Positions 15,585 through 20,405 of a stretch of 64,000 nucleotides of DNA are shown here, piece after piece. The notes beneath the pieces are model-generated. The model made no database searches. It saw only the letters and a list, made by a program, of their open reading frames with translations, and was not told the origin of the DNA. The stretch comes from Sphingomonas sp. Lineage in GTDB: Bacteria; Pseudomonadota; Alphaproteobacteria; Sphingomonadales; Sphingomonadaceae. The stretch lies in the NCBI GenBank assembly GCA_025356055.1, contig JANXUU010000133.1, positions 11,570 to 75,569 of the forward strand. The letters are read 5' to 3'. The position numbers and the translations under genes are program-made. Positions within the stretch are counted from its first letter, which is position 1. Every line of letters begins with the position of its first letter.

Positions 15585-16247
15585 TCATGCCGCCGCTCCC
15601 GACGACGCGTCATGGTTGCGGCTCAGTTCGTCGACTTCGCTCATGATCGTCTGCAGCGCTGTCTTGTTGGGATCGGTGACGTGTTGACGACGCGACGGCA
15701 GCTTCCCCCCGGTCAGCAGCGCTTCAAGCGCAACGCGGCCTCGCGCGACGCGGCTCTTGATAGTGCCGACCGCACAGCCGCAAATCTCGGCCGCCTCCTC
15801 ATAAGCAAAGCCGCCCGCGCCGACCAGGATCAACGCCTCGCGCTGCGGCTGCGGCAGGTGCAATAGCGCGCGCTGCATGTCGCCAAGTTCGATATGGCGA
15901 TCCTGGCTCGCTGGCGCAGCCAGAATCTTGGCGGCGGTGATGTCGTCCCATTCGCCCTTGAAACGCGCGCGCCGCATTTGGCTAAGGAAGAGGTTGCGCA
16001 GGATTATGAAGGTCCAGGCGCGCATATTGGTACCCGCCTGGAAGCGTTTGCGCGCAGCCCACGCTTTGAGCAGCGTTTCCTGTACGAGATCGTCGGCGAG
16101 GTCGCGGCTGCCCGAGAGCGATCGACCGAAGGCGCGAAGGTGCGGGATGACCGCGCCGAGCTGGTCCTTGAACTCGTCGTCGGGCAGCGGCACCGGCTCG
16201 GGCCGCGGCGGCTCGACATAATCATCGCCATCTTCGTCGGTAATCAC
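15585..16247 (-). CDS. ecfG: ECF sigma factor EcfG (sigmaT/RpoE2 type)
   Basis: PHLRAFGRSLSG, ADDLVQETLLKAW, AWTFIILRN, GTIKSRVARGR; located in the phyR/nepR locus. Confidence 0.92.
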   Translation of the reverse strand: MITDEDGDDYVEPPRPEPVPLPDDEFKDQLGAVIPHLRAFGRSLSGSRDLADDLVQETLLKAWAARKRFQAGTNMRAWTFIILRNLFLSQMRRARFKGEWDDITAAKILAAPASQDRHIELGDMQRALLHLPQPQREALILVGAGGFAYEEAAEICGCAVGTIKSRVARGRVALEALLTGGKLPSRRQHVTDPNKTALQTIMSEVDELSRNHDASSGAAA

Positions 16248-16553: not shown

Positions 16554-17354
16554 TCAGGCAGCGGGAACCGTCGCCGCGTCGAAGAACAGCGCCTGGCTGA
16601 TGGCCGCCTTGACGGTCGAACGCTGGAACGGCTTGGTAATCAGGAAGGTGGGTTCCGGACGCGTTCCGGTCAGCAGACGCTCCGGGAAAGCCGTGATGAA
16701 AATCACTGGCACCGAGAATTCGGCGAGGATGTCCTTGACCGCGTCGATCCCGCTTGAATCGTCGGCAAGTTGAATGTCGGCCAGGACCAGTCCCGGAGGA
16801 TGCTGGCGCGCCTGGGCGACCGCCTCGTCGCGCGTGACGGCGACACCGGTAACGTTATGGCCAAGGTCGCGGACGATCGTTTCGATATCCATCGCAATGA
16901 TCGGCTCGTCCTCGATGATCAGTACGTCGGCCAGCGTCTGGCGCTCGATTTCAGCCATTGCTTCGGACACCAGTCCGTCGACGTCGTCAGGGCTCGAGCC
17001 AATCAGATAGGCAGTGTCGTCGGTCGAAAAACCCTCGAGGCTGGTCAGCAGCAGCGCCTGGCGCGACAGTGGCGTGATTCGCGACAGGCGCGCGCGGGCA
17101 ATGCCCTCGGCATTGTTGTAACCGTCGCCGGGCTCATCACCTTCCTCGATATTGGCACTCGACCAGATCGCGTGGAAGGTGCGATAAAGGCCGAGGCGCG
17201 GATCGACATCGCGCGGAAAATCCTCGGGGCTGGCGACGATCGCCTCGAGCGCAGCGCGGACGAAGGCGTCGCCATGTGCCTGGCTCCCGGTCAGCGCACG
17301 GGCATAGCGGCGCAGGAACGGAAGATGCGGAGCAAGGTCCTGACCAAGCGACAT
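16554..17354 (-). CDS. phyR: Anti-anti-sigma response regulator PhyR
   Basis: N-terminal sigma-like domain (LPFLRRYARALTG) fused to a C-terminal receiver (IIEDEP, LADIQL, FITAFP, KPF). Confidence 0.96.
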   Translation of the reverse strand: MSLGQDLAPHLPFLRRYARALTGSQAHGDAFVRAALEAIVASPEDFPRDVDPRLGLYRTFHAIWSSANIEEGDEPGDGYNNAEGIARARLSRITPLSRQALLLTSLEGFSTDDTAYLIGSSPDDVDGLVSEAMAEIERQTLADVLIIEDEPIIAMDIETIVRDLGHNVTGVAVTRDEAVAQARQHPPGLVLADIQLADDSSGIDAVKDILAEFSVPVIFITAFPERLLTGTRPEPTFLITKPFQRSTVKAAISQALFFDAATVPAA

Positions 17355-17519: not shown

Positions 17520-17668
17520 TCGCTCTGGGATACATGAATCCGGCAGCCGATTGACGCCCCGCCGGAGCAATCATAGGGGCAGCGCACGCCGATTACGGAA
17601 TATTGCGTTAACAGGTAAATTAGTCGGGTAGGGCGTTGAGGCCTTGTCCGCCCTTGGGGGACGAGAGG

Positions 17669-17869
17669 TTGAGTGGCAGCGATCAAGCCGAACCGCGGGG
17701 CGACAGCGACGAAGGCCGGGAAGACGGCAAGGAAACAAAGGTGGCAGCGAATAAAAAATCGTCGAGCCGCCCCCGCGATGTCGGTCGCGCCTTGCGATCG
17801 GTCTATGACGATACGCTGCGTGAGGATGTTCCAGTCGATCTCATGGATTTGCTGGGACGGCTCGGGTAG
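17669..17869 (+). CDS. nepR: Anti-sigma factor NepR
   Basis: DVGRALRSVYDDTLREDVPVDLMDLLGRLG core; TTG start after a purine-rich RBS; divergent from phyR. Confidence 0.9.
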   Translation: MSGSDQAEPRGDSDEGREDGKETKVAANKKSSSRPRDVGRALRSVYDDTLREDVPVDLMDLLGRLG

Positions 17870-17899: not shown

Positions 17900-19423
17900 A
17901 TGCGCGGAACCTTCGCCCGGCTGCCGACCGCGGTTAAATTGCTTCTGATCATGTCGCTCGCGCTGATGCCGATCGGCATTGCGATGATCTGGACCGTGCA
18001 GAGCGGTATCGATCACGCCAATGCCCTGCTTGATCAGCGCGCCGAGGAGCAGGATCAGGCGGCGTCACGCGCGATTGAGAGCCTCATTGGGCGCAATGCG
18101 CTTGCTTTGCGCATTGCCGCCAGTGCCGCGATCGCGGTTCCGGGCGACGGTGATTGCGCGGAGGCCGGCCGCTCACTCAGCATCGCGCCAGGAGTCTCGC
18201 GCAACTTTTCGATTGAGCTTGCCGACGGTAGTGAGAATTGCGTCACCGCCGATTTTCGCCGCCCAACAGGCGCGCGATTCGCCCCGCCTGGCGGAATTGC
18301 ATTGTGGCTCGACCCGGCGGGCGGTGCGCTGTTTGTTCGAGTCGGGCTCGGCGGAGGTATGGCGACCGATCGGTTGCCGTTCGGCGAGCTTGCGGCCGCC
18401 GCACTCGACGTTGCCCCCACAATCGTCTCGTTGGGACTCGACGACGGGGTCCACGCCGCGCCCATCATCGGTAATCGCCGCGCGGTCTTCCACGGCACCC
18501 GGGCCAGCACACATCGAGTAGCTGGAGACCAGCTGGCGATCAGGGTTTCGGTCCACACGGAACGACTATCGACCGTTGAATGGCTGCTCCTGTTTTTGCC
18601 GACGATGATGTGGGTAATCGCCGCACTGGTAAGTTGGTGGCTGGTGTCGCGGCTGCTTATCCGCCCGCTTCGCCGGCTCGAACGAGCGGTCGCGACCTAT
18701 GACCCGTCGGCGGGCGGTTTCACCCTGCCGCGAGGTCTCGGACCCGCGGTCGAGATCGAGAGCCTCGGCAACGCTTTCGCGCGATCTGTCGAGCGGATCG
18801 AGAATAGCGAGCGCGAGATGGGCGATGCGCTCGAAGGCCAGCGCCGGCTCGTCCGCGAGGTCCACCACCGGGTGAAGAACAACCTGCAAGTCGTTGCCTC
18901 GCTACTTAGCATTCATGGCCGCAATGTCACCGCGCCCGAGGGCCGTTCGGCCTATGCCGCAATCTCCCGGCGGGTCGATGCACTCGCCGTCGTCCACCGC
19001 AACCATTTCGCGGAAGGCGAGGCCAATCGCGGGATCGCGCTGCGGCCGCTGTTCACCGAATTGGCGGCGGGATTGCGCGGCTCGGCACCCGACGAGGCAC
19101 GGCGGACCGCGATCCTGCTCGATGTCGACAGCGTCGCGACAACGCAGGACGTCGCGGTTGCCGCAGCCTTTCTTGCCACCGAAGTCGTCGAGTTTGCGAT
19201 GCTCCGCCAGCCCGCCTCGTCGATCGAGATCGAACTTCGTCGCACGAACGAACTGACCGCCCGCCTGACGATCGAAAGCGCTGTGCTGACCGAGCCCGAT
19301 GGCGAGGACAAGGAAAAGGTCCAGTTCGAGCGGGTCATCACCGGGCTTTCCCGCCAATTGCGGTCCTCGCTTGAACTTCGCCTCGGCCGGATGAGTGTCG
19401 AATTACCGGTTTTTCCGGCTTGA
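17900..19423 (+). CDS. phyT: Membrane HisKA_2 (HRxxN) protein with degenerate ATPase domain, PhyT/PhyP-like
   Basis: Two TM helices, HAMP, EVHHRVKNNLQVV H-box; N-box Asn and G1/G2 glycine boxes not recognisable; directly downstream of nepR. Confidence 0.75.
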   Translation: MRGTFARLPTAVKLLLIMSLALMPIGIAMIWTVQSGIDHANALLDQRAEEQDQAASRAIESLIGRNALALRIAASAAIAVPGDGDCAEAGRSLSIAPGVSRNFSIELADGSENCVTADFRRPTGARFAPPGGIALWLDPAGGALFVRVGLGGGMATDRLPFGELAAAALDVAPTIVSLGLDDGVHAAPIIGNRRAVFHGTRASTHRVAGDQLAIRVSVHTERLSTVEWLLLFLPTMMWVIAALVSWWLVSRLLIRPLRRLERAVATYDPSAGGFTLPRGLGPAVEIESLGNAFARSVERIENSEREMGDALEGQRRLVREVHHRVKNNLQVVASLLSIHGRNVTAPEGRSAYAAISRRVDALAVVHRNHFAEGEANRGIALRPLFTELAAGLRGSAPDEARRTAILLDVDSVATTQDVAVAAAFLATEVVEFAMLRQPASSIEIELRRTNELTARLTIESAVLTEPDGEDKEKVQFERVITGLSRQLRSSLELRLGRMSVELPVFPA

Positions 19424-19485
19424 TTGGTCAAATCGGTGCCGCGTTGGCAGTTTTTTTCGTCGCGCGTTTATTTTCGAAATAGCGC

Positions 19486-19511
19486 GGAACCAGTTCCGGA
19501 GATTGAGCGTT
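19486..19511 (+). promoter_or_regulatory. EcfG-type promoter with no downstream ORF
   Basis: GGAAC-N17-CGTT. Confidence 0.75.
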
Positions 19512-19517
19512 TTACAC

Positions 19518-19616
19518 TTCGGATAGCGACCTTTTGCCCCCCCGCTCTCGCTATCCGACTACATGGGCCCGGAACCGCCAACCTCCCCCCCCGGTGGCGT
19601 TTCCGGGCCCAAAAAA
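19518..19616 (+). ncRNA. Putative GSR small RNA (GsrN-like) with two C-rich loops
   Basis: 11-bp stem 19519-29/19548-58 with loop CCTTTTGCCCCCCCGCTC; 10+5-bp stem 19565-80/19595-610 with loop ACCTCCCCCCCCGG; EcfG promoter just upstream; ends are approximate. Confidence 0.65.
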
Positions 19617-19628
19617 TGTCTGGGACGT

Positions 19629-20405
19629 CTAGACCTCGATATTCTGTGGGTTCGTCGGCGCATTCCGCGCGGCGCGCCAGTGCGTGATTCGGATCGCGAT
19701 AATAGCGAATTCGTAGAGCGCGTAGAGGGGCACCGCGAGCAGCAGCATCGACACCGCGTCGGGCGGAGTGAGAACCGCCGAGACCGCCAGCACTATCACA
19801 GCCGCATAGCGCCGCGACTTCGACAGTTGATCGCGCGTCACCAGGCCGGCACGCTCCAAGATCATCAGCAGGATCGGCAGCAGAAAAGCGACTCCGAAGC
19901 CGAACAGGAAGCGCGTGACAAAGGTCAGGTAATTGCCCACCCCGGGCAGCGCCTCCTGCTGAACGCCACCGATATTGCCTTGGTAGCTGAGTAGATAATG
20001 AAGCGCGAAGGGCATCGTCACGAAATAGGCGAACGCCGCGCCGCCGATGAAGAACAGCGGGGTCATCAGCAGGAACGGCAGGAACGCGCGCTTCTCCTTG
20101 GCGTACATGCCGGGCGCGACGAACCGCCAGATTTGCGTCGCCAGCATCGGGAAGCTGATCATCAGCGCGGCGAAGAAGGCAACCTTCACCTGGGCGAAGA
20201 ACGCCTCGAAAATGTCCGTGTAGATGAGCTTTCCCTGGCCTGCCCTGAGCAGGGGCTGGACGAGGAAGGCGAAGATCGGCTTGGCGACGATCAGGCACAG
20301 ACCAAACGCGACGACCAGCGTCGAGACGGACCACAGCAGCCGTCGACGGAGCTCGACCAGATGCTCGAGAAGCGGCGCCTTGCTCTCGTCGAGGTCGCTG
20401 ATCAT
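19629..20405 (-). CDS. tatC: Tat translocase subunit TatC
   Basis: PLLEHLVELRRRL, WRFVAPGMY..E, LTPPD. Confidence 0.96.
   Translation of the reverse strand: MISDLDESKAPLLEHLVELRRRLLWSVSTLVVAFGLCLIVAKPIFAFLVQPLLRAGQGKLIYTDIFEAFFAQVKVAFFAALMISFPMLATQIWRFVAPGMYAKEKRAFLPFLLMTPLFFIGGAAFAYFVTMPFALHYLLSYQGNIGGVQQEALPGVGNYLTFVTRFLFGFGVAFLLPILLMILERAGLVTRDQLSKSRRYAAVIVLAVSAVLTPPDAVSMLLLAVPLYALYEFAIIAIRITHWRAARNAPTNPQNIEV

Follow-up and report, generated by a model that had tools for sequence, protein, structure and literature searches.

What does the 205-nt gap encode that separates a kinase gene from tatC at a general stress locus of this sphingomonad? The gap (19424-19628) lies in the window, by which we mean the whole 64,000-nt stretch analysed here. 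It runs from the stop codon of the kinase gene to that of tatC, and its extent is as given in the original prediction, which had placed an EcfG-driven sRNA with two C-rich loops in it. Sphingomonas melonis and Sphingopyxis have served for detailed studies of the PhyR-NepR-EcfG response, which concern proteins and promoters only. In S. melonis, only ~35% of the EcfG-dependent genes have an EcfG motif (PMC6599016). For the indirect part of the regulon, a conserved sRNA that EcfG drives from within the core locus would be an obvious candidate. We consider it likely that the gap contains an EcfG-dependent sRNA gene. It appears as a real, conserved and apparently undescribed gene of the EcfG type, which represents a new family of a known, predicted kind. 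It would be an independent gene (19486-19616, + strand), coding for a non-coding RNA of ~95 nt.

The genes around the gap are those of the general stress response. The upstream gene (17900-19423, + strand) codes for a PhyK/PhyT-like kinase of 507 aa with HAMP and HisKA_2 domains (Pfam HisKA_2, 1.1e-16). Its top match in NCBIfam is PhyK, with a score far under the cut-off. The gene for NepR (within 17636-17869, + strand) was assigned by Pfam/NCBIfam, as was phyR (16554-17342, - strand), which scores above the NCBIfam cut-off for the PhyR family. In the window, the gene that follows nepR is that of the kinase, not ecfG. An ECF sigma factor gene adjoins phyR (15585-16247, - strand) and is probably ecfG, judged by its Sigma70_r2 and r4 domains and a PhyR-sigma2-like match. 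It is preceded by an exact GGAAC-N16-CGTT motif (16534-16510, - strand), which suggests that ecfG is auto-regulated. On the other side of the gap, tatC is convergent (19629-20405, - strand; Pfam TatC, 2.9e-69), and tatB and tatA are also among the neighbours (Pfam/NCBIfam). With ecfG (at a distance of 3 kb, in the same locus), phyR, nepR and the kinase gene as neighbours, the element is positioned at the edge of the core general stress locus. The gene order phyR (-), nepR (+), kinase (+), sRNA (+) is conserved across genera, and the kinase gene is found upstream of the sRNA in most relatives. The kinase gene has an intrinsic terminator of its own (19437-19457, + strand; TGCCGCGTTGGCA followed by T7). 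This is the sole match in a terminator scan of the gap, and it implies that transcription of the kinase operon stops ahead of the sRNA promoter.

The predicted promoter (19486-19511, + strand) is an exact match to the EcfG-type motif, with GGAAC as -35 element (19486-19490), a spacer of 17 nt and CGTT as -10 element (19508-19511). Its distance to the first hairpin is 7 nt, as originally described. The motif derived for S. melonis Fr1 matches this promoter (PMC6599016), and the gsrN promoter of Caulobacter reads GGAAC-N16-CGTT (PMC5869019, supplement). On its own, the motif is not significant: the window has two matches (1.05 are expected), and the 31 strict matches in the 2.5-Mb genome are roughly the chance number. 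Significance comes from positional conservation in relatives. In all 46 loci analysed, which cover 13 genera, a GGAAC-N16/17-(C/G/A/T)(G/A)TT motif ends 7-8 nt before the start of the RNA model. Only two peaks of information content are found across the 45 upstream columns, GGAAC (1.3-1.9 bits) and CGTT (1.2-2.0 bits). The spacer has an information content of ~0.1-0.3 bits and drifts, while the -35 and -10 elements keep a fixed distance. Such a profile is the footprint of a sigma factor site.

Transcription of gsrN starts at the base of its 5' hairpin, ~10 nt past CGTT (PMC5869019, supplement). By analogy, the start is expected here at 19518-19522. The conserved helix truly begins at G19521, which is consistent with this prediction. 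In most relatives, an A6-A7 tract is found ~14-20 nt upstream of the -35 block, and such a tract also precedes the GGAAC of Caulobacter gsrN. It is possibly an UP-like element. The window has instead the T7 of the kinase terminator, slightly farther upstream.

Downstream of the promoter, the + strand is predicted to fold into two hairpins (-52.4 kcal/mol; z = -8.4 versus shuffles, compared to z = -4.1 for the - strand). Both stems had been described as perfect, and this holds for the first one. Stem-loop 1 (19519-19558) has arms at 19519-19529 and 19548-19558 that form 11 perfect pairs. Its loop (19530-19547), the presumed first seed, is CCUUUUGCCCCCCCGCUC; it has 18 nt rather than the 14 nt originally assigned. 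Stem-loop 2 (19564-19611) is long and GC-rich, and its stem has two 1-nt interruptions (pairs 19564-19574/19601-19611, with inner helices 19576-19580/19595-19599 and 19582-19583/19593-19594). The strictly unpaired part of its loop (19584-19592) is UCCCCCCCC. Loop 2 contains CCUCC, the anti-Shine-Dalgarno sequence, and the exposed AACCUCCCCCCCC is presumed to be the anti-Shine-Dalgarno seed of this hairpin. The hairpins are separated by a 5-nt A/U-rich linker, CUACA (19559-19563), which is single-stranded in the minimum-energy and consensus folds. In relatives, the linker is A/C/U-rich (e.g., GACAU or UUAAAU). By analogy to GsrN (PMC5869019), it is a possible processing site.

The element is conserved well beyond the window. 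By BLAST, 33 of 36 congeneric genomes have it, with identities of 82-95%. The similarity begins at the promoter or at the first hairpin and ends right past the second, and the flanks diverge. A covariance model (R1), built from 29 distinct copies, detects one full-length copy in each of 54 genomes among the 301 from Sphingomonadales. All belong to a single family and are distributed over 13 of the 86 genera, which include Sphingomicrobium, Sphingomonas, Allosphingosinicella and Stakelama. An exact-pattern scan gave matches in Sphingomonas (many species, leaf isolates included), Sphingomicrobium, Allosphingosinicella, Sphingosinicella, Stakelama and Sphingorhabdus soli.

Covariation in relatives, a check proposed together with the prediction, was analysed in 46 sequences from 13 genera. 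Standard pairs occupy 95.6% of the pair cells, compared to 29-46% after shifting the 3' partners by 1-3 columns. Compensatory changes were found in 21 of the 27 pairs (6 of 10 in stem 1 and 15 of 17 in stem 2), and shuffles never reach the observed values. This alignment was fitted to the model and thus leans towards the structure, but an independent within-genus alignment (MAFFT/RNAalifold) recovered both helices, 4 of the pairs being compensatory. Most genera do not keep the outermost pair of stem 1. When it is excluded, G-U occupies 61 cells and A-C only 2. Because G-U pairs are so much in excess over A-C, the helices fit the + strand only and would be disrupted on the - strand.

The two C-rich loops, on which the original prediction had centred, turned out to be the most conserved parts of the element, and their cores are the most conserved columns overall. 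All 46 sequences have the same loop 1 core, CCCCCCCGCU. Loop 2 has a run of at least five C in all relatives, with variable length. It had also been stated that the gap has no ORF. Mechanically derived ORFs do span it (e.g., an 87-aa ORF with TTG start, 19424-19687), but among relatives, the C-runs vary in length by 1 to 5 bases. This is incompatible with a coding region, so that the non-coding character stands. Taken together, the element is structured, conserved and strand-specific, its sigma-type promoter is conserved and its C-rich loops are invariant. The comparison of relatives argues firmly that it is not a chance structure.

The genome has further BLAST matches to the element, neither of which appears to be a second gene copy. 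One (G000:C14:2552-2687, 87% identical, on a 3-kb contig) could be taken for a paralog. It is flanked by a kinase gene and by tatC, the products of which have 83% and 84% protein sequence identity to those from the window, so that this contig seems to come from another, related strain in the bin and to carry the corresponding locus. The third match (C154) is located inside a coding region.

The 3' end is where the copy from the window deviates. It had been cautioned that the second stem is followed by A6 (19611-19616, + strand) rather than by a U-tract and that the 3' end is thus non-canonical. This is correct for the window but does not extend to most relatives, which have a U-enriched tail directly past stem 2. 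In the 46 relatives, the 12 nt past stem 2 contain 4.65 T on average, compared to ~2.2 expected from base composition. Typical tails are AAAUUUUUUCC or ACACUUUUUUUCGG, which make for an ordinary, if modest, intrinsic terminator. Stem-loop 2 probably doubles as terminator hairpin. The copy from the window has 3 T in these 12 nt (AAAAAAUGUCUG). Hairpin 2 does not look like a plain intrinsic terminator here, being followed by A6 on the + strand and by AUGUAG on the - strand, and the terminator scan found no canonical terminator past A6 in the window. The tail also starts with A5 in the copy from the other strain in the bin and in that from the nearest relative, where a canonical terminator is found ~20 nt farther on. 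With A6 in place of the U-tract, the 3' end of the window's copy and any Hfq-binding tail are uncertain. It is possible that the hairpin as such defines this 3' end or that transcripts extend into tatC.

GsrN from Caulobacter is the obvious RNA for comparison. It is a SigT-dependent RNA of ~100 nt, and a C-rich tract in its 5' hairpin pairs with G-tracts (PMC5869019). It is cleaved in the linker, which results in a stable 5' isoform, it is stabilised by Hfq, and its homologs usually adjoin ecfG, nepR or phyR (PMC5869019). GsrN-like RNAs were predicted across the Alphaproteobacteria, with none reported from Erythrobacter litoralis, the one sphingomonad in that survey (PMC5869019). The element shares with GsrN a GGAAC-N16/17-CGTT promoter, a length of ~100 nt and a 5' hairpin at or beside the transcription start (predicted here). 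In both RNAs, this hairpin displays a GCCCCCC(C)G tract and is connected via a single-stranded linker to a GC-rich hairpin at the 3' end, and the gene is, in most species, positioned beside core stress regulator genes. There are differences in detail. A plain hairpin loop holds the C-tract here, compared to an internal or multi-branch loop in GsrN, and the 3' hairpin carries a second C-rich loop here but a GUGA tetraloop in GsrN. The layout is nevertheless of the GsrN type (~100 nt, a 5' hairpin with a C-rich tract and a 3' hairpin), although the U-tail is missing from the window's copy.

Common descent with GsrN did not become apparent. The sequence of gsrN (CCNA_R0081) was taken from the supplement of PMC5869019 (Tien et al. 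2018). Its global alignment with the element scores 45, compared to 51.9 +/- 5.0 for shuffles. There is also no bridge between the two families, as a broader covariance model (R2) had no match outside Sphingomonadaceae when 400 genomes from 308 alphaproteobacterial genera were searched. A validated target of GsrN in Caulobacter is katG (PMC5869019). The only katG copy in the genome analysed here (G000:C130, start ~44732) has no G-tract in the 200 nt upstream, so the pairing of GsrN type with the katG leader has no counterpart. As homology to GsrN is not detectable and katG is not preceded by a G-tract, we regard the element as GsrN-like in kind, which is known, but as new at the level of the family. 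The term GsrN-like, as used in the original prediction, is thus appropriate as an analogy of design and position, while it does not apply in the sense of homology. In Rhizobiaceae and Bradyrhizobiaceae, GsrN-like sRNAs have been defined by position, with evidence of intergenic transcription being among the criteria (PMC5869019, Figure 9). The features of this definition that can be read from sequence are all present here: a near-consensus EcfG site, the proximity to ecfG/nepR/phyR and an exposed 5' C-rich loop. We thus propose that, in design and position, this RNA corresponds to GsrN in sphingomonads, while representing a separate sequence family. The GsrN principle would then apply to a further order, for which the original survey, with one species examined, reported no such RNA.

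The element is also distinct from other RNAs that it resembles. An Rfam 15 scan of the gap with permissive filters did not return a matching family, only chance-level matches. One of these, mir-2765, has 14.3 bits. Another is ar14 (RF02344), which is at 12.4 bits (E = 5.9), compared to a gathering threshold of 58.8, so that the element is not a member of this family. The resemblance to ar14 is one of architecture. It has tandem hairpins with C-rich, anti-Shine-Dalgarno-like loops, and its two loop motifs align onto both loops of the element. The loops analysed here are, however, homopolymeric C-runs and not CCUCCUCCC as in the ar14 type. Promoter and context also differ, the upstream gene being that of the kinase here and not a small DUF1127 gene. 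Among the alphaproteobacterial sRNAs with CCUCCUCCC loops is the "cuckoo"/CcsR type. SuhB from Sphingopyxis was considered and is a different RNA, which was reported to be under a LysR-type regulator with a regulon largely separate from the stress regulon. A literature search did not retrieve a paper that describes this RNA or contains its loop sequence, and small RNAs are not mentioned in the paper on the general stress transcriptome of S. melonis. The element defines an RNA family that is absent from Rfam, with covariation sufficient for curation.

We propose the following mechanism. Under stress, RNA polymerase with EcfG would start at the base of hairpin 1 (~19518-19522), and transcription would normally stop past hairpin 2, as far as can be predicted from the sequence. 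The resulting RNA, according to the comparative analysis, would consist of two hairpins and a short A/U-rich linker, each hairpin having an invariant C-rich loop. By analogy to known C-rich RNAs, the loops may act as seeds on G-rich stretches of mRNAs, either G-tracts or Shine-Dalgarno sites of the GGAGG type. Pairing may then alter translation or stability of the mRNA, as with GsrN and other sRNAs with C-rich loops, and the RNA would constitute a post-transcriptional arm of the stress response. Our confidence in pairing between loops and mRNAs is lower than that in an EcfG-dependent sRNA.

Candidate targets were searched in the genome. Loop 1 would match GCGGGGGGGC. Genome-wide, a perfect match of 13-14 nt to either loop does not occur except on the antisense strand of the gene itself. 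A perfect 13-bp site behind an EcfG motif (C116:49282) was rejected, as it is on the antisense strand of a real gene and as the 491-aa ORF assigned to it is spurious. Ribosome-binding sites with G6-G8 precede the genes for an asparaginase, the CpaC secretin, a DUF885 protein, a MAPEG protein, an S9 peptidase and an NlpC/P60 protein. Sites like these could be occluded by a C-rich loop, which makes the genes natural candidates. The asparaginase gene has a G8 site (AGGGGGGGGCAAUG, G000:C150:19700-19713). This was the one G-tract site tested for conservation, and the G8 tract is absent in other genera. An ftsB-like gene (G000:C40:23166-23477, + strand) begins with AUGAGCGGGGGAGCAAAA, which provides 15 nt of complementarity to loop 1, with one mismatch, within codons 1-6. 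This complementarity is kept in the nearest relative only, while a shorter G-rich patch (Gly-Gly codons) recurs in the genus. Upstream of ftsB, the sequence CTTGCC...GTGATTCT is conserved across the genus, and TGATTC is conserved across several families of the order. A convincing conserved target was not found in this search, which was crude, so that its negative result weighs little.

It could be argued that there is no separate transcript at all, with the hairpins being terminators or insulators between the kinase gene and tatC and with the promoter motif occurring by chance. GC-rich hairpins are indeed common between convergent genes, and the number of motif matches in window and genome is about that expected by chance. 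All 46 loci, however, have the motif at a fixed distance although its spacer drifts, and invariant loop sequences are not required of a terminator. In addition, the kinase gene has its own terminator upstream, a U-tract past the hairpins is missing on the tatC strand, and the element is far from tatC in other genera. We consider this reading very improbable. If there is an EcfG-dependent RNA, it might do something other than pair with mRNAs. It could bind or titrate a protein, or be a sponge for G-rich RNAs. The loop, being invariant over 13 genera, would also fit a protein-recognition site, and no conserved mRNA target has come up. Against this, exposed C-rich loops are an established device for mRNA pairing (GsrN, PMC5869019), and little can be concluded from a target search as crude as ours. 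A non-pairing RNA thus seems quite unlikely.

The close neighbourhood of tatC raises a different issue, namely that the RNA might act mainly in cis on tatC in the genus of the window, coupling the stress response to Tat export. Stress-induced read-through could produce an antisense RNA into tatC, or the 3' UTR of tatC could carry a perfect complement of the sRNA. The layout is convergent, A6 replaces the U-tract and a - strand terminator was not found between tatC and the kinase gene. The stop codon of tatC is only 18 nt past the end of stem 2, and tatC is found 19-118 nt downstream of the element throughout Sphingomicrobium. The lost U-tract and the short distance leave room for a cis effect on tatC. 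Hairpin 2 is, however, strong enough to stop or protect the transcript even when a U-tract is missing. The distance to tatC is 260-570 nt in Sphingomonas and in most of the other genera, and an intervening gene is present at least in one Sphingomonas genome. The element is thus independent of tatC, and tatC cannot explain the conservation of loops and structure in the family as a whole. A main role in cis is therefore unlikely. We also regard it as unlikely that in Sphingomicrobium, besides a role in trans, the sRNA and the 3' UTR of the terminator-less tatABC mRNA form a mutual antisense or sponge switch. If such a switch exists, the tatABC 3' UTR would complement both seed loops, and the general stress response would be linked to Tat export. 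The reading that we prefer is an EcfG-dependent sRNA that would act in trans. As far as it can be computed, the original prediction is supported, with covariation on the + strand, a conserved EcfG-type promoter, the position within the ecfG-phyR-nepR-kinase locus and two highly conserved C-rich loops.

The region between sRNA and tatC has additional features in other genera. In one Sphingomonas-type genome (G062, L067 1640-1850), it contains a gene for a 41-aa entericidin-like lipoprotein (MRKFFGLAIVASALLVSACNT...), which is preceded by a further motif of the GGAAC type. This gene is missing from the window. The sequence GGAACG is found ~50-60 nt past the sRNA in many other genera, too.

The element is abundant in soil and rhizosphere metagenomes. 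Transcript-like short contigs were sought in metagenomes, and only genomic contigs were obtained. Among the matches listed, about one-fifth of the soil and rhizosphere contigs that carry the element start or end within ~80 nt of it. Assemblies seem to break at the element, either due to its homopolymeric C-runs or because a conserved element is common to co-occurring strains.
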